Shown here: positions 1 to 11,326 of the stretch, piece by piece | Layout of the letters: each line of letters starts with the position of its first letter | Position numbering within the stretch: position 1 is the stretch's first letter | Origin: Candidatus Krumholzibacteriia bacterium | GTDB taxonomy: Bacteria; Krumholzibacteriota; Krumholzibacteriia; WVZY01 | DNA: 11,327 bases | Assembly (NCBI GenBank): GCA_036478295.1 | Contig: JAZGDW010000027.1 | Location: 1 to 11,327, forward strand | Reading direction: 5' to 3' | The notes under the pieces: generated by a model | Told to the model about the DNA's origin: nothing | The model's database searches: none | What the model saw: the letters and a program-made list of their open reading frames with translations, nothing else | Program-made: the position numbers and the translations under genes

Positions 1-1
1 G

Positions 2-3000
2 GTTCTCTCGGAGACGGAGGTGCGGGCGAGGTTGACGGACCTGTATGGGAACGTGGTGCCGGGCGAGCGGGTGGACATTTTGATCAAGGATGGTGTGGCG
101 GACGGTGTATTGAAGTTGAACCCGGCGGATCCGAACGCGACGACGGTGGTGAACGCGACGGCGCGATTTGGGACGACGGACGCAAGCGGGGAGATATCGG
201 TGTTGTACGAGGCGCCGGGTGTAGCGGGTGCGGAGGACACGCTGGACGCGTTCGGATCCGGGGCGGCTCAGGGAGACGTGACGGATGTGATCTACACGAG
301 CGTGGCGAGCGGCGCGACCGATCTGCGCATCGTGTTTGTGGGGGGGGCTATGGCGCCGGCGGGGCAATCGTTTTCGTTTGGTATCGAGGCGGTGGATGGC
401 AACGGCAATATCGACACGGCGGACACGAGTTCGGTGGCGATCGGGGCGGATGTGGGTGGTGCGATAACGTTCAGCGAGACGGATTTCGGGGTGCCGGTGA
501 GTCAGGTTTCGCTGGCGGCGGGGGTGAAGGTTCTCTACGGGCGGGGGCAGAATGCGGGTACGTGGAACATCACAGTCAGCGATGAGGACACGGTGCTTAC
601 GGGCGCGACGGAGACGGTCGACATCGTGGATACGGGAGCGGTGGATCGTTACGTGGTCACGGCGGTGGACAGTGTGGAGGCGGGAGTTGCGTTCAGCGTG
701 AGCGTGGTGGCGCGGGATACGTTCGGCAACGCGGTGTCGGGGGCGAACAATGGGGTGACGCTGGTGGCCGTCGACGCCGGCGATACGACCCTGGTGATGA
801 GCGATACGCTGCTGGTGAGGAGTGCGACACTGAGTTCGGGCACGGCGTCGGTGGGAGAGACCTATCTAAGAGTGGTGCCCATCCGGGTTCGGGTGCGTGA
901 CGGCTCCGGCAACGAAGGGTTCAGCGGCCTCGTCAAGGTAACGCCCGCTCCGGCGTACCGCCTGGCGGAAGTGAGTGGCGATTCGACGGGCGTGTTGTCG
1001 GGGGGGACGGTAGCTCTGGCGGCGCGGGTGCTGGATACCTATGACAACCCGGTGGCGGGAGAGGTGGTGTCGTTCAGCGTGACGCTGGGTTCGGGGAGTG
1101 TCGACGTTCCGGGGCCGATGAGTGACGGGAGCGGGCGGGTGGATGTGAACTTTACGACGGGCGTGGCGGCGGGCGAGAACCGTGCGCGGGCGACGATCGG
1201 AGACGGCAACCCGGCGGGTCTGGAGAGTGTGGAGTTTGTGGTGGAGACCGAGGCGGGCGGGATCGCGAGTTATCAGGTGGTGCCAGAGAAGACGGCGGTG
1301 GTGGCAGGAGAAGTGATCAACGTAGAGGTGCGGGGGTCTGACGCGAACGGCAACCTGGTGACGAACGACAGCACGACGATCGTGAGCCTGGGCAGCGATA
1401 CGGGCAATGGTATCTACGGTGCCCCGGTGGGCGTGCTCCTGGGCGGGATCTACACGACGGCGATGTTCGATACGGTGGCGGAGAGCGTAATACTGACAGT
1501 ACAGACGCAGGGTGGAGGCCCGAGCGGAGCGAGCCCGGCCGTGAGCGTCAATCCCGCGACACCGTACGAGGTGGTGAAGATCTCCGGCGACGCGAGCGGG
1601 CTCGTGGTCGGCTCGGTCGCCGGACTCGAAGTAGAAACCCGGGATGCATTCGGAAATGTGACCCCCGGTGTCGTCGTCATTTTCGATGTGATGACGGATC
1701 CAGGGGGTGCGTTCATCACGGACGCGGTGGGCGACCCGAACGATGGGATTACCGTTGCTGATGCAGTGGGACGTGCGACGGCCAGCCTCACGACGTCGCT
1801 GACGGTCGGTGACAATACCGCGATGGCCAGCATCCTGGACGGTGTCCCGCCAGGGCTGGAAACCAGAACCTTCACCGTCAGTACGGTTGCCGGTGTAATT
1901 GCTGCCTACACTGTCACGGCGGGCACAACCGACCAAACCGCCGGTACCGGGGTGGGCTTTACCGTCGCCGCCTTCGACAGCGCGGGAAACGTTGTGGATG
2001 ATAGCACAACCCTTGTAACGCTTACCTTGGATCCGGGCAGTGGCGGGGTCTTTGCCGCGACGCCCATGGTGCTACAGAACGGCGCCTTTTCCACCTCCGT
2101 TTCGGACACCATCGCCGAGGTTATCCGGATTCGCGCGACGACGCAGGCCGGCTCGGCCACAGGCCTCAGTGCACCGGTCACCATACACCCGGACATGCCG
2201 GCAGGCGTCATTACGGCATCTGTTGTCCCGGATACGATTACGGCGAACGGGGGCAGCGCGTCCACCGTTATTTCTGATCCGATCCAGGATCGGTATGGAA
2301 ATGTCGCGTCATCGGGCGGTTTGATACGCGTTTCCGTGGACCAAGGTTCCATCGGCTCGCCGGACCAGGATCCGTCGACACCGGCCACCAACGAGCAGCA
2401 GATCGATGGGTCAGGTATCGTTGCCTTCGACGTTATCTCGGACAACGTGGCAGGCACGGCTACCGTGTCGATGACCAGCGTCGGGGGCAGCGCGTCGGGC
2501 GTTGCCAGTATCGCGTACGCGCCGCCGCCGGCATTCGTTTGCCTGGATGCTCCCGTACCATCCATTATCGTTCCCGGCGATTCGATTGCGTTCGCCGTGC
2601 CTGTAGAGAACACTTCCGCGACGGGCCTGGTTCTTTCCACCAGCACCGTGTTCGAATTCAACGATGGCACCCGGTTTTTCTCCGCTCCGCTCGCTGCCCC
2701 GAAGTGGATCGCTCCGTCGGTCACCGACACGCTCGTCTTTGAAGTCGCGGCAGTCGACTCGCAAATGGTCCCGACGGCGTATCAGCCGGTTGTTCGTTTT
2801 GCCGGCACCGACCAGTTCGGTGCCACCTTTGCGCAAACCTGCCAGTTGCCCGCCGCCAGCGTGCGCATGTCACTAATCGAGATCAGCTCGATCACCGCCA
2901 CTCCGCTCGTCAGCCGTGGGAGAACCGAAAACGTCATTGTCGGCATCACAAATCGCAGCTCCGACACCGCCATCATTGCAGCGGCCACACTGGCCATTCC

Positions 3001-4738
3001 GCTGGGTGACTACATATTCAACCCCAGCCCCGACCTGCCGGACACGATTTCTCCCGGCATGACTTCGTTTGTGAACTTTGCCGTTACCATACAACCGTCG
3101 TCGCCGCTGGTGACGACGTCGATCGACGCCTCGGTCTCGGGGACGGTAAACGGTCTCGCCGTGTCTGATTTGTCCCTGGCTCCCAATGCGCTGCCGCAGT
3201 GGACGATCGAATCCGCCGCGAGCCTGGCTTACGTAGCTGGTTCCCTCGCCCCTGGAATCGTTTCTCAGGGGCAGGCGCAGAGTCTCTCCGTCACGGTGCA
3301 GAACCAGGGACAGGCCACAGTGACCCTGGACACGGTTGCTACCACCCTGTCGTTTACTGACGGCGGCAACATCTATAATGCCGGTTTGGCGCAGGCGACC
3401 GCGCTCGCCGGAAATTCCAGCCAGTTACTGCAATTCGACACGGTTACCGTGCCGGCCGGGTTCACGCCGGGCGTCTACGGTGTGGCCCTGCATCTCGAGG
3501 GTGCGGAAAACGGCGGGCCGTTGGTCGCGGACCTGAACACGGGAGTATCTGGAGACTCCATACGTGTGGTGACTCCGGCGAGCGTCGCCTATCAGGCGGG
3601 CAGTCTCGCGCCGGTGGTCGTGAACAAGACCACCACGACATTTTTCGAGATCACCCTGCTGAACTCGGGCGGCGCCACGGTCGATCTGGATCCGGATTCC
3701 AGCCGTTTCTCTTTTGCCGGTGGGATCTACGATGCCGCTCTCGACCGGACCTTCGGCGCCACGGTGGTGGGTGGTGGCCCGTCGACCCTGCGTTTCACGG
3801 CCGAGCTCGTCAGCCCGGCAATCTCCCCGGGAGCCCATGCGCCCACGGTGCGGCTCGTCGGCGACGAGAACGGACTACCGTTTGCGGTGACCATTGGCCC
3901 GGGCGACAGCGTACAAGTACAGAACGCGGCCGATATCACGATCGAGAACACCTCGGCCGCTCTGGGCATTACGACCCGCGTGGTACCGAAGGGCGCTCGC
4001 GACGTGCGAATGATGGCCATGCGAATCGAAAACCCGGCGAGCAACACCGATTCGGTGCGACTCCGGTGGATCGACGTCGCGCTTCGCGACCAGAATCGCA
4101 ACCTGGTCGCCAACCCCGCGGCCACGGTCACCGAGTTCTACGCGCTCAAGGACGGCGTGCGCATAGACGGCGCCGTGGGACAGAATCCCATGCGCATACA
4201 GGTGGACGCACTTGGGCCCGGAGCAGTCATCCCACCGCAGGGTACGAGCGACATCGTCCTCGTGGTCAGCGTCGCAAGCAGCGCGACCCTCGAATCGTTC
4301 ACCATCGAGGTGCCCGGCTCCAGCGATATGCTTATCGAGAACGTCTTCTCCGCCGAGAGAATTTTCGTCGTCGACAAGGTGACGGGGCGGGATTTTGCGG
4401 GCAAGTTGCGATCACTGAGCCTCGTCATTCTGAGCGGCGAGTTTTCCGAGTATACACACAACTATCCGAACCCGTTTCACGCCGGTCGGGAGTCCACACG
4501 GATCGCCTATTTGCTGAGCAGCCAGGCCGACGTGTCGATCCGCATTTTTACGCTCGGGGGCGAAATAGTCTACGAAAGACGGTTCTCCGCCGGAGAGCCG
4601 CAAACCACGGCGGGCCCTCAAGAAGTCCTGTGGGACGGGCGCAACATGTCTGGTGAAGTGGTTCGAAACGGGCTCTACGTGTGCCGGGTTGAAGCCGGAC
4701 CCAACTCTGCGACCTTCAAGATTGCGGTGGCAAAATGA
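2..4738 (+). CDS. Large secreted/surface protein with tandem Ig-like (Big_1/invasin-type) domains and a C-terminal FlgD_ig / T9SS type-A-like sorting domain; 5'-truncated by the window
   Basis: The frame is open from nt 2 (VLSETEVRARLTDLYGN...), so GTG at 20 is probably internal, and no signal peptide is visible. The sequence is G/V/T/S/A/D-rich beta-strand type with recurring DxxGN-like motifs (DLYGN, DGNGN, DTFGN, DTYDN, DANGN, DAFGN, DSAGN, DRYGN). The C-terminus reads HNYPNPF...IRIFTLGGEIV...WDGRNMSGEVVRNGLYVCRV...KIAVAK-stop. Confidence 0.88.
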   Translation, partial: VLSETEVRARLTDLYGNVVPGERVDILIKDGVADGVLKLNPADPNATTVVNATARFGTTDASGEISVLYEAPGVAGAEDTLDAFGSGAAQGDVTDVIYTSVASGATDLRIVFVGGAMAPAGQSFSFGIEAVDGNGNIDTADTSSVAIGADVGGAITFSETDFGVPVSQVSLAAGVKVLYGRGQNAGTWNITVSDEDTVLTGATETVDIVDTGAVDRYVVTAVDSVEAGVAFSVSVVARDTFGNAVSGANNGVTLVAVDAGDTTLVMSDTLLVRSATLSSGTASVGETYLRVVPIRVRVRDGSGNEGFSGLVKVTPAPAYRLAEVSGDSTGVLSGGTVALAARVLDTYDNPVAGEVVSFSVTLGSGSVDVPGPMSDGSGRVDVNFTTGVAAGENRARATIGDGNPAGLESVEFVVETEAGGIASYQVVPEKTAVVAGEVINVEVRGSDANGNLVTNDSTTIVSLGSDTGNGIYGAPVGVLLGGIYTTAMFDTVAESVILTVQTQGGGPSGASPAVSVNPATPYEVVKISGDASGLVVGSVAGLEVETRDAFGNVTPGVVVIFDVMTDPGGAFITDAVGDPNDGITVADAVGRATASLTTSLTVGDNTAMASILDGVPPGLETRTFTVSTVAGVIAAYTVTAGTTDQTAGTGVGFTVAAFDSAGNVVDDSTTLVTLTLDPGSGGVFAATPMVLQNGAFSTSVSDTIAEVIRIRATTQAGSATGLSAPVTIHPDMPAGVITASVVPDTITANGGSASTVISDPIQDRYGNVASSGGLIRVSVDQGSIGSPDQDPSTPATNEQQIDGSGIVAFDVISDNVAGTATVSMTSVGGSASGVASIAYAPPPAFVCLDAPVPSIIVPGDSIAFAVPVENTSATGLVLSTSTVFEFNDGTRFFSAPLAAPKWIAPSVTDTLVFEVAAVDSQMVPTAYQPVVRFAGTDQFGATFAQTCQLPAASVRMSLIEISSITATPLVSRGRTENVIVGITNRSSDTAIIAAATLAIPLGDYIFNPSPDLPDTISPGMTSFVNFAVTIQPSSPLVTTSIDASVSGTVNGLAVSDLSLAPNALPQWTIESAASLAYVAGSLAPGIVSQGQAQSLSVTVQNQGQATVTLDTVATTLSFTDGGNIYNAGLAQATALAGNSSQLLQFDTVTVPAGFTPGVYGVALHLEGAENGGPLVADLNTGVSGDSIRVVTPASVAYQAGSLAPVVVNKTTTTFFEITLLNSGGATVDLDPDSSRFSFAGGIYDAALDRTFGATVVGGGPSTLRFTAELVSPAISPGAHAPTVRLVGDENGLPFAVTIGPGDSVQVQNAADITIENTSAALGITTRVVPKGARDVRMMAMRIENPASNTDSVRLRWIDVALRDQNRNLVANPAATVTEFYALKDGVRIDGAVGQNPMRIQVDALGPGAVIPPQGTSDIVLVVSVASSATLESFTIEVPGSSDMLIENVFSAERIFVVDKVTGRDFAGKLRSLSLVILSGEFSEYTHNYPNPFHAGRESTRIAYLLSSQADVSIRIFTLGGEIVYERRFSAGEPQTTAGPQEVLWDGRNMSGEVVRNGLYVCRVEAGPNSATFKIAVAK
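947..2194 (+). repeat. Two tandem copies of a two-domain (A+B) Ig-like unit, ~947-1555 and ~1556-2194 (protein-level repeat)
   Basis: Copy 1: APAYRLAEVSGDSTG...DTYDNPVAG...ATIGDGNPAGLES...GIASYQV...DANGNLVTNDSTTIVSL...DTVAESV...SGASPAVSVNPA. Copy 2: TPYEVVKISGDASG...DAFGNVTPG...ASILDGVPPGLET...VIAAYTV...DSAGNVVDDSTTLVTL...DTIAEVI...TGLSAPVTIHPD. Confidence 0.75.
2522..3925 (+). repeat. Second family of ~120-aa beta-sandwich repeats: clear copies at ~2522, 3221 and 3581, plus one divergent domain between the first two
   Basis: SLAYVAGSLAPGIVSQG...VQNQGQATVTLD...LSFTDGGNIYNAGL...PGVYGVALHLEGAENGGPL aligns with SVAYQAGSLAPVVVNK...LLNSGGATVDLD...FSFAGGIYDAAL...PGAHAPTVRLVGDENGLPF, starting exactly 360 nt apart. 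Weaker copy: VENTSATGLVL...FEFNDGTRFFSAPL...PTAYQPVVRFAGTDQFG. Confidence 0.7.
4454..4735 (+). other. C-terminal sorting domain (FlgD_ig / T9SS type-A CTD-like) of the giant protein
   Basis: The NYPNPF start motif, the IxIFTLGGEIV strand, the WDGRNxxGxxVxNGLY motif and the terminal KxxVxK match the known CTD/FlgD_ig pattern. Confidence 0.85.
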
Positions 4739-6666
4739 GAAACCACACGAGATCGAATTCGCGCCCCCCATGGCGCGCAACGGTTATCGCGTCGCTTGTG
4801 CTCGCGCTGGCCTTCGGAGGCTTGTCGGCGCCCCGGGATGTGTGTGCCCAGGACGGTGACGCGGGTACGCAGAGTGTTTTCTCCACGCTCGGGGCGGGCT
4901 CACGGGGAATAGCTCTGGGTCGCTCGTTCGTCAGTCTCGCCGACGATGCGAGCGCCATATACTGGAACCCGGCAACCCTCGGGAACGTCCAGAGCAAGCA
5001 GTTCATGGCTATGTACATGCCGCTCTTTGGAGATTTTACCGATGCCACATACACCTTTCTGGGTGCCGTGTACCCGACGCTCACCGCGGGAACGTACGGA
5101 ATTGGTTTTATGCGGGTTGGTGCCGACTTCGAGGGGTTCGACAATGCGAGTGTGCCGACCGGTACGCAGGAATACGCCGAGACACAGGTGCTGATCGGTT
5201 ACGCCTTCGAGCGACGATATCCCCACACGCACGGGTCGCTCGCCCTGGGCCTCAATTTCAAGATTGCCAACCAGCGGGTCGGGTCTCGATCGAGCACGTC
5301 TCCGGGTATCGACCTGGGACTCCGTTTCGATCCTGATTTTGCGTCGCGTTTTTCGTTTGGACTCAATTTTCAGGACCTGGTCGGGCCGAAACACCGGCTC
5401 GATCGCGAGGTGGACAAGACCGACAGGACAATCCTGACCGGGCTCGGCTACACCCATCGGCTTCGCAACGGTTCGGTGGTTCGGTTGCTCATGCAGATCG
5501 ACTCGCCACAACGGGCGGCCAGCAAGTTTCACGCGGGAGCCGAATACGTCTTTTCGAAATACGCCGCCCTGAGGGTCGGGGTTGACGACGGCAGCGTGAC
5601 CTTTGGCCTGGGAATAACCGTTAGAGACTTCGGGCTCGATTTTGCGTTTCTCAGCCGGAATACTGCGGGCTCGGCGCAGCCCGTTTCCTTCACGGCACCG
5701 TACGGAGAGACCTTGCTCGAGCAGCGACAAAAGCTGGCGGAAGAGCAGGAGCGCCGGGATGTTGCACTTATCCGGCGTGTGTTTGGCCGGCGTGTGCAGG
5801 AACACCGCGACCGGGCTCTGCAGGAGGAGGAGGTGGGCGACGAGGCCGCGGCGCTCGACGAATGGAAAATCGTGCTCGAGTACATGCCGGGAGACGAGGA
5901 AGCGACAGAGCACATGCAGGGGCTGACGCGGAGCCTAATCGAAGCCCAGAACGTTGCCAACCGGGACATCGAGCACCGTGCCACGATCAACACGCACTTC
6001 TCCCAGGGACTGCAGCTCTACCAGGAACGTGACTACATCCGATCGCGCCGGGACTGGTTGGCGATTCTCGACATGGATTCCACTCACGCCGAAGCGAAAA
6101 CGTACCTCGAGCGGACGCAGGCCAAAATCGATGAGACCATTGCCGATCATATTGCGAGCGCCGAGCAATTGGAGAAAGAACAACGCCTGACGGAGGCCAT
6201 CGGTGAGTGGAACAACGTTCAGATGTTCGACCCGGACAACGAGAGTGCCCGGGCCGCAATCGACCGTATACGATCCACGATAGAAGCCCATAGCCACAGC
6301 CTCGCACAGGTGGCGAGACGCCTGAAGGTTGTCAATCTCTACAACGCCGCGCTGCAGGACTACAACCGGGGTGAATACAAAGCGGCCATCAAGCAACTCG
6401 AGCACCTGCTGCAACAGGATGCCACCCATCAGGAGGCCCGGCAGCTGCACGCGATGGCCCAAAGGAAGCTCATTCCCTTGTCCAAAGAGGATGAAGCCGC
6501 CATTCGGCGTTTATTCCTCAAAGGAATGGGGCATTTCGCCAAGGATCACTACTCCGCCGCCATTCTCGAGTGGGGGAAGATACTGAAGATCGATCCGACG
6601 AACGAGAGCGTCAAGCGGAATATCGAAGAAGCGAGGGAACGTCGAAAGCAACTGGAGCGTCGGTAA
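4735..6666 (+). CDS. PorV/PorQ-family outer-membrane beta-barrel protein fused to a C-terminal TPR region
   Basis: Signal peptide (basic N-region, hydrophobic VIASLVLALAFGGL, VCA|QD cleavage at ~4849). Family motif GAGSRGIALGRSFVSLADDASAIYWNPATL. Amphipathic strands (GIDLGLRF, FSFGLNFQDL, FHAGAEY, ALRVG, FGLDFAF) run to ~5706, then ~320 aa of helical TPR-like repeats (AALDEWKIVLEYMPGDEEA; EAIGEWNNVQMFDPDNESA; AAILEWGKILKIDPTNESV). ATGA overlap with the upstream stop. Confidence 0.85.
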   Translation: MRNHTRSNSRPPWRATVIASLVLALAFGGLSAPRDVCAQDGDAGTQSVFSTLGAGSRGIALGRSFVSLADDASAIYWNPATLGNVQSKQFMAMYMPLFGDFTDATYTFLGAVYPTLTAGTYGIGFMRVGADFEGFDNASVPTGTQEYAETQVLIGYAFERRYPHTHGSLALGLNFKIANQRVGSRSSTSPGIDLGLRFDPDFASRFSFGLNFQDLVGPKHRLDREVDKTDRTILTGLGYTHRLRNGSVVRLLMQIDSPQRAASKFHAGAEYVFSKYAALRVGVDDGSVTFGLGITVRDFGLDFAFLSRNTAGSAQPVSFTAPYGETLLEQRQKLAEEQERRDVALIRRVFGRRVQEHRDRALQEEEVGDEAAALDEWKIVLEYMPGDEEATEHMQGLTRSLIEAQNVANRDIEHRATINTHFSQGLQLYQERDYIRSRRDWLAILDMDSTHAEAKTYLERTQAKIDETIADHIASAEQLEKEQRLTEAIGEWNNVQMFDPDNESARAAIDRIRSTIEAHSHSLAQVARRLKVVNLYNAALQDYNRGEYKAAIKQLEHLLQQDATHQEARQLHAMAQRKLIPLSKEDEAAIRRLFLKGMGHFAKDHYSAAILEWGKILKIDPTNESVKRNIEEARERRKQLERR

Positions 6667-6675
6667 GGCGACACG

Positions 6676-9120
6676 ATGGGAACTGGATCGGGCATAGACC
6701 AGAAGAACGTCAGGATTCGTGAACTGACCATCCCGGCCGACGAGAGCCAGCTGAGTCGCGTGCGGGAATTTGTCGCAACGGTGTGCACCGAAGCCGGTTT
6801 CACCGCGGGCGAAGTAAACAACACGAAACTGGCCGTCGACGAGGCCTGCACCAACATCATCAAACACGCCTACGACGACTCCAACGGTCGTATCCGCGTC
6901 CGCGCGAGCGTCAGCCCGGGCGCCGTGGATTTCTCCTTGATCGATCGAGGCAAGCGTTTCGACTTCGCCGCCGTCGAAGACCCCGACCTGGAGCATTACG
7001 TCGAAACGGGAAGAAAAGGCGGGCTGGGCGTATTCCTTATCAATCGCCTCATGGACCGGGTGGAATACCGCACCGTTCACGGCAGCAACGAACTCCTGCT
7101 CTCGAAGACCAGCCTCGCAGTGGCGTCGGGGGCGATTGCCTCACGGATTAGCTGGCGGGGATCGCTGCGCTACCGGTTTACGCTGAGGGCCAGTCTGGGT
7201 CTCTTTGTGATCATCGCCAGCATATGGGGTTACATTTTCGTGGGCCAGACCGAGGGGATCAAGGAACAACGAACCACTCACTGGATGGAAAAGAGGCGTC
7301 TGGCCGAAGACGTCGCCAACAAGAGCAGAGCGCTGCTCCTCAATCCGCAAATGTACTCGATCGAGCAGACGACGTTGACCGCCTTCATTGCCCGAATGGT
7401 GGACGGCAACGAAGATCTCGCCTACCTGAGGGTGGTGGACCTGGACGACGGCATACTCTCCTCCGCCAACATCGACGAAATCTTTACCAAATTTTCAAAA
7501 AAGGACGGGCACGTGCTGCTCGAAGAAGGCAACGGGGTGCGATGGATGCAGATCGAGTTCAACGGTGAAGTAACGCGTGATATTCGCTTTCCCGTACAGG
7601 TGAGAAATCAGGACACCGGCCGCCTGATCGCTGTAGGCAACGTATACGTGGGCGTGTATGAACACGCCATGTATCGCGCAATCACGGACCCGAGGCCGCT
7701 GACCACCGTCATCATCCTCATTAGTTTTCTGGCCGGCATTCTCCTCATTGTGACCCTGGTGACGGTGTTCGTAAAACCCTTACAGGTGCTGACGGAAGGC
7801 GTGCGCGCCATCGGGCAGGGCTCGCTCGACAGCAAGATCGACGTCGGTGGTCCGGCCGAGATCGGGGCCATCGCGACTGTCTTCAACGACATTACCAAGA
7901 AGTTCAGAGAGGCTCAGGTCAACCTACTCGAGCAGGAAAAGCTCCAGAAAGAAATCGAGGTGGCGAAGCAGATCCAGCAATCGCTCCTGCCCCGCGACTA
8001 CCCCGCCGTCAGCGGTTACGATATCGCCCCCTATTACCAGGCGGCCAAGGACGTCGGGGGTGATTACTACGACTTCGTCCACGTGGACGAGGGCGCGCTC
8101 GGGGTCGTTGTCGCCGATGTTTCAGGAAAAGGCGTACCGGGGTCGCTGGTCATGACCATGATCCGCACTGCTCTCCGCATGGAGGCGAGGGGAAACAAGA
8201 ATGCATCCGACGTCATGGGCAGGGTGAATGCTTTTGTGACGGACGACATGAAGAAAGGAATGTTCGTCACGATGTTCTACGTCATTCTTGATTCCAAGAA
8301 CCGGACGATCAGTTACGCGAGTGCTGGACATAACCCCATGATCCTCTACCGTGGTGAGGGACGGGAGATCTACTTTCTCAATCCGAAGGGCTTCCCGGTC
8401 GGCATCAGCCTGCCCGACGCCTCTCTGTTCAACCGATCGATCGGTCTCGAAAAGATCAAGCTCAAGAAGGACGACATGCTCGTTATCTACACCGACGGTG
8501 TAACCGAGGCAATGAACGAAAAGCGTGAGCAGTATGGGGAAGAGCGACTTGTTCAGCTCATAGAGGAAAACGGCCATTTTCACCCCACAAAATTCATCGA
8601 GGAACTGGAGAAGAGTATCAAGGCGTTCACAGGTGGCTACGCGCAGAACGACGATATCACGGTCGTGGCGATAAAGGAAAAACTCGGTGCTGACGACGTG
8701 CTCGCCGGTATACGAAAAAAGCTCATCCAGCTCGTCGAGGTGGGAGGCATGAGCGTAAGGGCGGCCTGCAAGAAGATGAACGTGTCGCCGACAACGTACT
8801 ACCGTTACAAGAAACGCGTGGCCCTGCTGGGAGAAAGAGGACTGAAGAACAAGATTCTTCGGGAGGATACCGATCTGAAGATGATGACGGTGGAGGAGCG
8901 GAAAGCGATATTGAAAATCATCGTCGCGCACCCGGATTTCGGGGCCAAGCGAATTAGCGAGGCCTACCACCGGCGCACCAATGGGGGGAGGCAACTGACT
9001 GAGCGCATGGTCTACGACGAGTTGAAGCGGCTCGACCTGAATACGAAGGAACGTCGCCACGACTACGTACGGCGAATCCCCTTGTTCGACCAGGAAGAGG
9101 CACTTCTCAAGGATTCATAG
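6676..9120 (+). CDS. Membrane-bound partner-switching regulator: RsbW-like HATPase + 2 TM/periplasmic sensor + HAMP + SpoIIE (PP2C) phosphatase + C-terminal HTH region
   Basis: HATPase boxes KLAVDEACTNIIKHAY, IDRGKRFD, GGLGVFLINRLMD. TM1 ~7189-7245, TM2 ~7696-7773. HAMP KPLQVLTEGVRAIGQG...EIGAIATVFNDI. PP2C motifs AKQIQQSLLP, VGGDYYD, VADVSGKG, SAGHNP, YTDGVTEA, NDDITVV. HTH MSVRAACKKMNVSPTTYYRYKKR. Starts 9 nt after the previous stop. Confidence 0.92.
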   Translation: MGTGSGIDQKNVRIRELTIPADESQLSRVREFVATVCTEAGFTAGEVNNTKLAVDEACTNIIKHAYDDSNGRIRVRASVSPGAVDFSLIDRGKRFDFAAVEDPDLEHYVETGRKGGLGVFLINRLMDRVEYRTVHGSNELLLSKTSLAVASGAIASRISWRGSLRYRFTLRASLGLFVIIASIWGYIFVGQTEGIKEQRTTHWMEKRRLAEDVANKSRALLLNPQMYSIEQTTLTAFIARMVDGNEDLAYLRVVDLDDGILSSANIDEIFTKFSKKDGHVLLEEGNGVRWMQIEFNGEVTRDIRFPVQVRNQDTGRLIAVGNVYVGVYEHAMYRAITDPRPLTTVIILISFLAGILLIVTLVTVFVKPLQVLTEGVRAIGQGSLDSKIDVGGPAEIGAIATVFNDITKKFREAQVNLLEQEKLQKEIEVAKQIQQSLLPRDYPAVSGYDIAPYYQAAKDVGGDYYDFVHVDEGALGVVVADVSGKGVPGSLVMTMIRTALRMEARGNKNASDVMGRVNAFVTDDMKKGMFVTMFYVILDSKNRTISYASAGHNPMILYRGEGREIYFLNPKGFPVGISLPDASLFNRSIGLEKIKLKKDDMLVIYTDGVTEAMNEKREQYGEERLVQLIEENGHFHPTKFIEELEKSIKAFTGGYAQNDDITVVAIKEKLGADDVLAGIRKKLIQLVEVGGMSVRAACKKMNVSPTTYYRYKKRVALLGERGLKNKILREDTDLKMMTVEERKAILKIIVAHPDFGAKRISEAYHRRTNGGRQLTERMVYDELKRLDLNTKERRHDYVRRIPLFDQEEALLKDS

Positions 9121-9318
9121 ACAATGGGCCGGCAGACACCTGTCCGGTTGGCAAGCGGTGGTTGCAAAATGCGAACGCCTGCGGTGGGTCGGGCGAGACC
9201 CAGCCGGCTCCGCGCGCGAGGTGCGCGGGAGAACTGGCCGGAAAGCGGCTGGAGCGGGACAAGGTCTTCCTGCCGTCGAAACGGGTGGTTGGACTGACTT
9301 TTGCTTCACTCGGTGGTT

Positions 9319-9323
9319 GGAGA
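9319..9323 (+). promoter_or_regulatory. Shine-Dalgarno-like site for STAS gene 1
   Basis: GGAGA 8 nt upstream of ATG 9332. Confidence 0.6.
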
Positions 9324-9331
9324 ACCTAAAC

Positions 9332-9709
9332 ATGGAAAAACTCATAATTTCTGAAGAGACGATCTCAGGGACGAATCCCATTACGCTGTTGACTCTCAAG
9401 GGCACGATCGAGACGACAAACGCGACGACTCTGGAAGAGGTACTCGTACACATTCTCTCTAACGACCGCTACCGCATCGTGGTGGATCTCTCCGAGGTCA
9501 GCTACATAAGTTCCGCGGGCTGGGGCATCTTTATCAGTGAAATCAAGCGTGTACGGCGCAAGCGCGGTGACATCAAGCTCGCTGCGATGAGAGCCGGCGT
9601 CCGGGAAGTCTTCGACCTGCTCGAGTTCAACAACATTTTGCAACTCTACCCCGGCAAGGGCGAGGCGATCAGGGATTTCGAGGCTCCGGTCGGGGCCAAG
9701 GTGGACTGA
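9332..9709 (+). CDS. STAS-domain anti-sigma-factor antagonist (RsbV/SpoIIAA family), copy 1, 125 aa
   Basis: LTLKGTIETTNATTLEE...IVVDLSEVSYISSAGWGIF...GDIKLAAM...VREVFDLLEF. Start reassigned from GTG 9158 to ATG 9332 because of the SD site and the length match to the paralog. Confidence 0.9.
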   Translation: MEKLIISEETISGTNPITLLTLKGTIETTNATTLEEVLVHILSNDRYRIVVDLSEVSYISSAGWGIFISEIKRVRRKRGDIKLAAMRAGVREVFDLLEFNNILQLYPGKGEAIRDFEAPVGAKVD

Positions 9710-9753
9710 ACCTCCCGGCCCGACCATCTTTCGAGTGCACACTCAACAACACC

Positions 9754-9760
9754 GGTGAGG
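9754..9760 (+). promoter_or_regulatory. Shine-Dalgarno-like site for STAS gene 2
   Basis: GGTGAGG 7 nt upstream of ATG 9768. Confidence 0.65.
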
Positions 9761-9767
9761 TTTCAGC

Positions 9768-10148
9768 ATGGCCGTCCACGGCATTGTTGTCAGCGTTATT
9801 CTCGGCAAAACAGCCGAAGACGTATCCACGTTGAAGGTCAGCGGCTACCTGGACATCACTACGGCCGGCGAACTGGAAAACGCACTCGCTGGCCTCCTCG
9901 ATAACAACTACCACAAGATCGTCGTGGACCTCTCGGGCGCGACCTACATCAGCTCCGCGGGTTGGGGCATTTTCATCGGTGAAATCAAGGGCATTCGCGA
10001 CCGCGGCGGTGACCTGAAGCTGGCCGGAATGGTCGGCGACGTGTACGAGGTCTTCCAATTGCTCGAGTTCCAGTCGATTCTCGAGGCCTACTCGACGGCC
10101 ACGGAGGCCGTCGACGCCTTTGCCCGGTCGAGCGCCACCCCGGGTTAG
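9768..10148 (+). CDS. STAS-domain anti-sigma-factor antagonist (RsbV/SpoIIAA family), copy 2, 126 aa
   Basis: LKVSGYLDITTAGELE...IVVDLSGATYISSAGWGIF...GGDLKLAGM...VYEVFQLLEF...EAVDAF. Confidence 0.92.
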   Translation: MAVHGIVVSVILGKTAEDVSTLKVSGYLDITTAGELENALAGLLDNNYHKIVVDLSGATYISSAGWGIFIGEIKGIRDRGGDLKLAGMVGDVYEVFQLLEFQSILEAYSTATEAVDAFARSSATPG

Positions 10149-10321: not shown

Positions 10322-11326
10322 ATGGGTCTGGATTTTCAAGCCGGTGTCCTCATCCTCGGGCTTCTGCTGCTCGGGGTGGCGTACGTCGCTTATCGGGGGA
10401 CCACGCCGTCCTTATCACCGGGGCTCCGGTGGTTTCTGTTCAGCCTGCGGGCGTGTGCCTTCGTCCTGCTGGCCTTCCTCCTCATGGATCCGCGCTACAT
10501 CCGCCACTCGAGCAAGAGCGAGTCCCCGCAGGTCCTGGTGCTCGTCGACCGGTCGACCAGTATGAGCCTGCCTGCGGTGGGGTGGGACAAAGGCCCGGAC
10601 CGTTTCAGTCGTGCCCGGGACATTGCCGCCAAGCTAAATGAAGTAATCCGGTCCCGGGGTGGACGATCGGCCGAGGCGTACTTCTCCGCCGGCCTGACTT
10701 CGGGGACGGGCGACACGCTGGCTGCTGACGGCCAGGGAACCGAGATCAGGCGCTCGTTGGTCAGTCTCCACAAGAAACACGAGGGGGAAAATATCGTTGC
10801 TTTCGTCGTGCTGTCCGACGGGGTTGAAACCGAAGAGCGCCTCGTGCGGGAGCCGCTGCCCGAGGTGCCGGTGTTTACCGTTGGCCTCGGTGACACCAGC
10901 GCGCCGGAAGACGTACGCATCAAGGATGTTGACTATAACAGCATCGTGCGAGCGCCCGCACGTTCCGTGATACGGGCTACCCTGCACTACTCCGGTGGAG
11001 ACGTCAAACGGGTTCACCTGCGACTGCGTGAATCGGGGAAGACGGTCTTTGAAAAAGATACCCTGATGACGCCTCAGGCACGGGAACTGGTGCAGCAGAT
11101 ACCGGTCGATTTCCCGGAGGCGGGGCGACGCCAGTTCCTTCTCGAGGTGGACGTGGACGGCTATGATGCCGAAGTGGAGAACAACCGCCGGGACATCGTC
11201 ATCGAAGCCGAAAAGGCAGGGGTACGGATCCTCATCGTCGACCTGCTGCCCGAGTGGGAGCTCCATTTCCTCACCGATTTCCTGAGGAATGATGAGACCT
11301 TCGATTTCGACCTGGTCGCTTCGGTA
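10322..11326 (+). CDS. Membrane-anchored von Willebrand factor A (vWA) domain protein; 3'-truncated and absent from the ORF track because it has no stop in the window
   Basis: Manual translation: MGLDFQAGVLILGLLLLGVAYVAYRGTTPSLSPGLRWFLFSLRACAFVLLAFLLMDP (two TM helices)...VLVLVDRSTSM (MIDAS DxSxS)...GTEIRRSL...FVVLSDG...PVFTVGLGD. An Ig-like domain follows, ending EVENNRR, then RILIVDLLPEWELHFL. The frame stays open for 335 codons to the window end. An alternative GTG start exists at 10253. Confidence 0.87.
   Translation, partial: MGLDFQAGVLILGLLLLGVAYVAYRGTTPSLSPGLRWFLFSLRACAFVLLAFLLMDPRYIRHSSKSESPQVLVLVDRSTSMSLPAVGWDKGPDRFSRARDIAAKLNEVIRSRGGRSAEAYFSAGLTSGTGDTLAADGQGTEIRRSLVSLHKKHEGENIVAFVVLSDGVETEERLVREPLPEVPVFTVGLGDTSAPEDVRIKDVDYNSIVRAPARSVIRATLHYSGGDVKRVHLRLRESGKTVFEKDTLMTPQARELVQQIPVDFPEAGRRQFLLEVDVDGYDAEVENNRRDIVIEAEKAGVRILIVDLLPEWELHFLTDFLRNDETFDFDLVASV

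Follow-up and report, generated by a model that had tools for sequence, protein, structure and literature searches.

Few routes are known by which a surface signal crosses both membranes of a diderm bacterium, and the locus described here raises the question of whether parts of a type IX secretion system (T9SS) can form one. The DNA analysed, hereafter the window, is a stretch of 11,327 nucleotides that makes up one contig (JAZGDW010000027.1) of the 3.5-Mb, 91% complete genome (G000) of a Krumholzibacteriota member, Candidatus Krumholzibacteriia bacterium (GCA_036478295.1); its closest relatives are labelled Ca. Krumholzibacteriia/Latescibacterota, and a 75% identical relative (G112) belongs to the same genus. 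A sequence-only reading had described five co-oriented genes with a 4-nt overlap and a 9-nt gap, and all of this was confirmed: five plus-strand open reading frames (ORF1 to ORF5) lie at 2-4738, 4735-6666, 6676-9120, 9332-9709 and 9768-10148, ORF1 and ORF2 sharing an ATGA overlap of 4 nt, ORF2 and ORF3 being 9 nt apart, and the later gaps measuring 211 and 58 nt. Profile searches and models likewise upheld the domain calls, namely a giant Ig protein with a C-terminal domain (CTD) of T9SS type, a PorV/PorQ-like barrel with a tetratricopeptide repeat (TPR) tail, a membrane protein combining kinase, sensor, phosphatase and helix-turn-helix (HTH) parts, and two STAS proteins. That reading missed the truncation of the cargo gene by the contig end and the absence of parts common in relatives. 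Taken together, the locus represents a real, undescribed, multi-phylum module, and by a small measure above an even chance we favour the view that it is a trans-envelope relay, in which a surface adhesin sits on its own PorV-type barrel and a TPR rod acts on a Cache sensor, a kinase–phosphatase pair and thereby STAS phosphorylation.

The receptor (ORF3) was found in 55 of 121 Krumholzibacteriota genomes, and a barrel–TPR gene lies directly upstream of it in 53 of the 55, the other two loci (G032, G087) ending at a contig edge (counted by hand); some families have the receptor almost throughout (8/8, 11/12, 25/25, 4/4), and others gave no match (0/9, 0/48). Loci were also picked by the barrel with the receptor ignored, giving 36 paralogues from about 69 second-tier matches, 60 of 83 matches in KSB1, and 24 loci from the phylum of genome G121 (20 of 50 matches plus four from G121 itself). 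All 36 paralogous loci have a TM–Cache–TM–HAMP gene behind the barrel, as do 59/60 loci of KSB1 (the remaining one meeting a contig end) and 16/24 in the G121 phylum. In the same order of groups, a CTD gene precedes the barrel in 35/36, 60/60 and 17/24, and STAS follows in 26/36, in 19/20 (counting the KSB1 loci retrieved at sufficient length) and in 12/24. The barrel occurs in 76 of 81 KSB1 genomes, and the module is near-universal in KSB1, common in Krumholzibacteriota and present in further uncultured phyla. Among 74 weaker, generic SpoIIE loci from metagenomes (L221-L294), many of them short contigs, none holds a PorV barrel. Since related genomes are not independent, these counts are descriptions and not a statistical test; the linkage of barrel and receptor is far above chance. 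The synteny in homologues that the sequence-only reading had looked to for support is thus strongly borne out and extends to paralogous loci and other phyla; its five-gene layout is not invariant, as the cargo or the barrel is absent from the loci of some lineages.

ORF2 encodes a signal peptide, a helical plug and a 14-strand PorV-family barrel (4735-5712, plus strand), followed after the last strand by a TPR/long-helix rod of about 318 aa (5713-6666, plus strand). Its match to the PorV_fam model NF033709 reaches 89 bits against a cut-off of 90 (90.8 in a second search), together with a TPR match, and it fails the PorV equivalog NF033710 (20.1 against a cut-off of 250 bits), so that the barrel is a PorV-family member and not a PorV orthologue. 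The AlphaFold model (residues 39-643, pLDDT 91) shows the helical plug, 14 strands and a helical rod straight after the last strand, and the best Protein Data Bank (PDB) matches of the barrel are the PorV chains 8gl6_F and 6h3i_F, with FadL ranking next; the plug carries an NPA-type motif (sequence WNPA). With an even number of strands the C-terminus should emerge in the periplasm, and the rod is accordingly predicted to be periplasmic. In the alignment its last TPR is the most conserved block, and its length runs from 297 to 385 aa in FCB-type groups and from 164 to 266 aa in the G121 phylum. Barrel plus tail recurred in 138 of 149 new representatives at 50% identity among the matches listed. 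Atlas look-alikes are commonest in Zixibacteria, Calditrichota, Eisenbacteria, Elusimicrobiota and Spirochaetota, with UPF0164 clusters among them.

The receptor, an 814-aa protein on the plus strand, begins with a cytoplasmic RsbW/SpoIIAB-type Ser kinase domain (6676-7110, residues 19-144, HATPase_c_2), continues with a first transmembrane segment (residues 170-192), a periplasmic sCache domain (7246-7695), a second transmembrane segment (from about residue 339) and HAMP (together 7183-7929; hydropathy, model and profile match), and then carries a PP2C/SpoIIE phosphatase of RsbU type (7948-8679, PF07228) and two HTH-like subdomains (8698-9120, residues 680-800) that resemble the DNA-binding N-terminus of IS481/IS630 transposases in profile searches. 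The kinase is of the GHKL Ser kinase type with intact N, G1 and G2 boxes, its residues E56, N60, H64, D90, G92 and G115/116/118 being invariant in 64/64 rows; so are D463, D466, D481, D607, D659 and D660 of the PP2C domain, the fold of which matches RssB, Rv1364c and SiaA in structure comparison. An inserted IS remnant was considered for the HTH pair and rejected, as the pair is kept in frame across phyla and no transposase core was seen. By every sequence test but that of a target, the cytoplasmic half is a partner switch. To call it self-contained was an overstatement, given that the locus holds no sigma factor or proven target and that the receptor and its neighbours are reduced compared with relatives. 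In a separate observation, one of the 149 records (P0291, 1,259 aa) runs from barrel–TPR into TM–Cache–HAMP–PP2C; it was rejected as a true fusion, because the topology is wrong and the linker holds an apparent second-gene start, and it is probably a read-through.

Behind this receptor architecture the output varies while the input triad, i.e. a distinct CTD subtype, the barrel–TPR protein and Cache–HAMP, stays fixed. The kinase may be fused N-terminally as in the window, fused C-terminally, encoded separately or fused to STAS, and in five loci an HD-GYP domain replaces PP2C. In a FastTree phylogeny of the barrels (83 of 189 rows, four of them HD-GYP rows), HD-GYP-linked barrels fall within a PP2C-linked branch at two or more points. 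A single genome (G079) has four loci of the module. With HD-GYP behind the same input in some paralogues, cyclic di-GMP (c-di-GMP) would be the output there.

We favour the outside-in relay on these grounds, since the tightest pair is that of barrel–TPR and Cache–HAMP, only tailed barrels take part in it, both partners face the periplasm by prediction, and the Cache domain, DcuS-like in fold, is without the basic residues of the DcuS pocket. A number of observations weigh against it. Searches for the motor, which covered the own genome and G079, G019, G065, G111 and G122, had no known-positive control genome and did not extend to GldL, turned up neither GldK nor GldM in the own genome, and neither GldM nor GldN in checks of five genomes each, three or four of them single-contig. 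Thirteen Bacteroidota-labelled loci keep barrel and receptor with an unrelated gene upstream, presumably HflX-like from its motif, and with no STAS gene beside the receptor. The cargo gene is not upstream in four receptor-bearing loci of the G121 phylum and its kin (L059, L207, L208, L210), and 8/24 barrel–TPR loci of that phylum are without an adjacent receptor. Seven Spirochaetota loci consist of receptor and STAS with no barrel upstream, the barrel–TPR gene of one such genome lying elsewhere without a receptor, and a closed, partly masked chromosome (L043) has a receptor with neither a barrel nor an N-terminal kinase match. The conserved order itself fits simple co-regulation too. Mean-field coevolution over 189 pairs (Meff ~165) was too underpowered to speak for or against contact: the top rod–Cache z of 5.3-5.9 compares with 6.0-6.05 for three controls with swapped neighbours, and only a handful of plausible pairs within domains rose out of the background.

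Co-regulation is an alternative, in our judgement an unlikely one: the Cache domain would sense a small molecule, the switch would control expression of the adhesin and its shuttle barrel, and the tail would have another partner, such as the translocon or the cell wall, or the barrel would be a FadL-like ligand transporter. The Cache profile indeed matches the DcuS sensor domain at 5e-9, and its best solved relatives are the ligand-binding domains of DcuS and CitA; nevertheless, the basic residues which we take to bind carboxylate in DcuS (R107, H110 and R147) are absent from the family profile, where I, S and E/D stand at the aligned positions. The Spirochaetota receptors without a barrel are in line with co-regulation, as are the WNPA plug motif and the FadL-like barrels of Treponema pallidum with C-terminal TPR bundles, which are read as transporters in the available text of PMC8407342. 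On the other side, the receptor neighbours tailed barrels only (tail-less barrels have a Cache–HAMP neighbour in 0/9 cases in the own genome and in 0/6 fetched loci, one of these being a frameshifted piece), the triad survives duplications and output swaps, and PorV outranks FadL in the fold search.

ORF1 (2-4738, plus strand) is read as 1578 aa, its 5' end being lost to the contig end, and is predicted to be a giant Ig-repeat T9SS-type cargo or adhesin (Big_1 and FlgD_ig below cut-off); complete relatives reach about 2,000-3,000 aa and have an N-terminal hydrophobic stretch (e.g. L100, L101, L111). Their front parts are variously of Big_1/invasin, DUF11, LamG/cadherin or malectin/CBM9 type with the same CTD behind, so the front is interchangeable while the CTD subtype is kept. 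In the window this type A-like CTD (4418-4735, plus strand) matches FlgD_ig/TIGR04183 at 22.2 bits, just under the cut-off of 23, and ends in FKIAVAK, whereas generic CTDs of the same genome mostly end in KMVLLK. In a quick tree that took in one third of the linked CTDs, these form a branch of their own (SH-aLRT 98), separate from some 80 generic CTDs encoded in G000, which lends indirect support to the suggestion of the sequence-only reading that the barrel is dedicated to its cargo. Two own-genome rows fall inside the linked branch, one of them a long branch and the other a CTD on contig C203 that has its own barrel. Within the cargo gene, GC skew drops from about +0.3 (window 1-1500) to negative values (2500-3500) and G-ending codons dominate the 5' part; the skew shift may mark a segment of different origin.

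A distinct CTD subtype is also what one would expect if an unexported CTD bound the Cache domain directly in the periplasm and the barrel lowered the signal by removing it. Precedent exists in Porphyromonas gingivalis, where the CTD of PorA binds PorY (available text of PMC12152298), and the CTD tracks the Cache domain here with an identity-matrix r of 0.84; this value is confounded by shared descent, to which the whole four-domain range of 0.84-0.94 is attributed, and is not proof of binding. Such secretion feedback leaves the rod unexplained, however, and barrel and receptor are the tighter pair, kept without a cargo gene in the 13 Bacteroidota-labelled loci, so that we hold it to be quite improbable.

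For the favoured relay, we infer the following course. The CTD would export the cargo through the SprA translocon of the genome, in which both SprA and PorU score over cut-off. The CTD subtype would then bind the barrel encoded next door and stay there, as gene pairing, CTD clustering and the analogy with type B CTD/SprF pairs suggest, and CTD occupancy or adhesin load would shift the barrel and, with it, the rod attached behind the last strand. We propose that the conserved last TPR docks on a Cache dimer and that the signal passes through the second transmembrane segment and HAMP. From family knowledge, HAMP would set PP2C against the attached RsbW-type kinase, altering the Ser phosphorylation of STAS. 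The output, the weakest step, would probably be transcriptional, via the two HTH subdomains or a sigma factor encoded elsewhere; 14 sigma-70 family genes score over cut-off elsewhere in the genome, and no sigma factor was found in the window or seen in related loci.

The presumed substrates are the two STAS anti-anti-sigma proteins on the plus strand, the first at 9332-9709 (TIGR00377 over cut-off) and the second at 9768-10148 (profile matches, alignment), each with the motif YISSAGWG. Ser61 of the first, which we take to be the RsbV-type phosphorylation site, corresponds to Ser63 of the second, and the motif Ser is retained in 268 of 286 STAS domains aligned. In this region the window differs from most of its relatives. 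Its receptor stops after the HTH pair, whereas most relatives go on with three STAS domains (fused STAS domains occur in 84 of 119 receptor relatives listed, and 80 of these 84 have three), and the 211-nt spacer (9121-9331) replaces the fused STAS x3, a ParA-type ATPase, an ORF of about 105 aa and a 372-aa TPR protein of most relatives. Of the 55 Krumholzibacteriota loci reaching free STAS genes, 51 have the ATPase between these and the receptor, usually along with the small ORF, which has no family match, and the 372-aa protein (e.g. L021:14416-16587). The window and its congener L002 are without all of these, and no orthologues of the missing parts were found elsewhere in the own genome, which makes loss in the genus the simplest reading; within this genus a receptor form of roughly 1,400 aa is cut down to 814 aa. 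In KSB1, by contrast, the receptor has TPRs at its end and the only STAS protein bears an HTH-like tail. In loci L175-L194, L054-L061 and L197-L204, the C-terminal HTH-like piece of the STAS protein after the receptor matches the second HTH of the receptor by profile, the pairwise match being weak; kinase and STAS substrate may thereby bring two DNA-binding halves together.

The place of the ParA-type ATPase would fit a reversed flow, in which the switch, by way of HAMP and Cache, would act on the rod and thereby control whether the adhesin is held, released or positioned, while the ATPase would localise the complex. The layout of a giant adhesin, an outer-membrane barrel and a protein with periplasmic domain and HAMP is that of the LapA/LapD/LapG system, which comprises a type I secretion system (T1SS) adhesin, a degenerate GGDEF-EAL receptor and a periplasmic protease. 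No such domains were found in the window, though, nor was a gene for a protease seen in the loci; the enzymes behind HAMP are catalytically intact by sequence, unlike degenerate LapD. The window's genus lacks ParA, and in KSB1 loci none was seen in the interval from receptor to STAS. Inside-out control of this kind strikes us as very doubtful.

Further downstream, a VWA-like membrane protein gene (10322-11326, plus strand, 3'-truncated) is probably outside the core, as it is a conserved neighbour in Krumholzibacteriota only and was not matched in three KSB1-type loci (L049, L050, L052). The conserved order behind STAS in Krumholzibacteriota runs from this VWA-like protein (continuing on G000 contig C128) to a lamin-tail-domain protein that ends in a CTD-like part and then to two proteins lacking an NCBIfam match. 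In paralogous loci (L081, L084, L086, L087, L089, L100, L109, L110; three scanned), a GAF–HisKA–HATPase histidine kinase often comes after STAS, and it is a possible output of the switch. A promoter and terminator scan stayed at the level of shuffled sequence (1 vs 1.5 and 7 vs 5.3), and a look-up of RNA runs listed none.

In the own genome, PorV-like barrels number ten and CTD proteins about 88; the CTD of the window shares its fold family with these CTD proteins, though it is of a separate subtype. On four contigs (C288, C218, C139, C265), CTD genes are directly followed by tail-less PorV-family barrels, making cargo–barrel pairing a recurring layout there. Behind the other CTD of the linked subtype, on contig C203 (2151-13478, L335), come a PorV barrel whose tail is FlgD-like, a TPR protein of 1,104 aa (YbgF/SprE-like matches), a TolQ/ExbB-like gene and a TonB-like gene; we speculate that this gene set is a candidate energiser for the secretion pathway. 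Judged by the genes found, a T9SS-like pathway without the known motor is possibly at work. Weak SprA-like matches also appeared in long frames of a Spirochaetota genome (L173, G124:C19) and in the G121 phylum (G121:C190), both outside the usual FCB range; T9SS genes are described as confined to FCB phyla in the available text of PMC11285876.

How does the module relate to known systems? It resembles cell-surface signalling and is a member of no described system. In FecA-FecR-FecI, YfiBNR and LapADG, an outer-membrane component signals across the periplasm to an inner-membrane regulator. The protein families differ from these at each layer, and there is no TonB-dependent receptor, anti-sigma factor, lipoprotein, protease or T1SS here: TonB-dependent cell-surface signalling employs a 22-strand receptor, an anti-sigma and an ECF sigma factor, in place of which the locus has a 14-strand barrel and a kinase–phosphatase. 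Partner switches were compared in Chlamydia (RsbU/RsbW/RsbV1-2), Pseudomonas (SiaABC(D)), Vibrio (SypE/SypA) and Bordetella (BtrU/W/V). SypE unites kinase and phosphatase in one chain, and to our knowledge, as far as the available accounts go, none of these switches is tied to an outer-membrane barrel. Membrane-sensor partner switches with PP2C, Ser/Thr kinase and STAS are known from the available texts of PMC11619594, PMC7647112 and PMC8256260, and there are two STAS here as in Chlamydia; unlike in those switches, a single chain has the kinase on one side of the membrane sensor and the phosphatase on the other, and also holds an HTH pair.

On the secretion side, the comparison is limited to the available parts of the sources. 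The extracellular loops of PorV carry type A CTDs (PMC10994853), a type A CTD is Ig-like with a Lys in the last strand (PMC11285876), and in Flavobacterium johnsoniae all type A cargo depend on one PorV (PMC12618676). The locus shares with this shuttle the PorV fold, a putatively Ig-like CTD, and SprA and PorU in the genome, and departs from it in a barrel encoded beside one cargo, the 318-aa TPR rod and the sensor linkage, with motor genes not found. Type B adhesin genes are directly followed by their own PorP-SprF barrel, for which lasting anchorage is proposed (PMC12618676); here a type A-like CTD is paired with a PorV-family barrel, and the available text of that paper describes no signalling role for type B pairs. 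In the PorA-PorXY-SigP pathway of P. gingivalis, CTD cargo likewise feeds a membrane sensor (PMC12152298), but there the sensor is a histidine kinase bound by the CTD in the periplasm, and neither a tailed barrel nor a partner switch is involved. TP0548, TP0859 and TP0865 of T. pallidum are modelled as FadL-like 14-strand plugged barrels with a predicted periplasmic, TPR-bearing C-terminal extension (PMC8407342, PMC13749626); the extension of these UPF0164 barrels is a three-helix bundle, nutrient uptake is proposed, and the available text of PMC8407342 describes no cargo or sensor linkage. Our literature search, in which subscription journals fell mostly outside and supplements were excluded, found no account of this gene arrangement, in agreement with the statement of the sequence-only reading that it knew of no characterised system with this layout.

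Trans-envelope signalling and partner switches are already known kinds, and the locus would be categorically new if the contact between rod and sensor is true. It is to us an open bet, with the odds balanced, that the module stands for a new class of surface signalling, in which T9SS shuttle barrels would serve as outer-membrane receptors for interchangeable giant adhesins or lectins, would pass contact or force on through a TPR rod and would drive swappable inner-membrane outputs (partner switch, c-di-GMP phosphodiesterase), all on a T9SS-like pathway for which the searches did not find the known motor. Its design, with a variable adhesin, a fixed core of barrel, rod and Cache and a variable output, is widespread in uncultured phyla, and it hints that the unexplained TPR extensions of UPF0164/FadL-like barrels may bind partners. 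Were the coupling only genetic, the locus would still be an undescribed multi-phylum operon with cargo-specific PorV paralogues; if the relay is true, T9SS parts would make up one more route across the envelope, and PorV-family barrels would gain a role in signalling.

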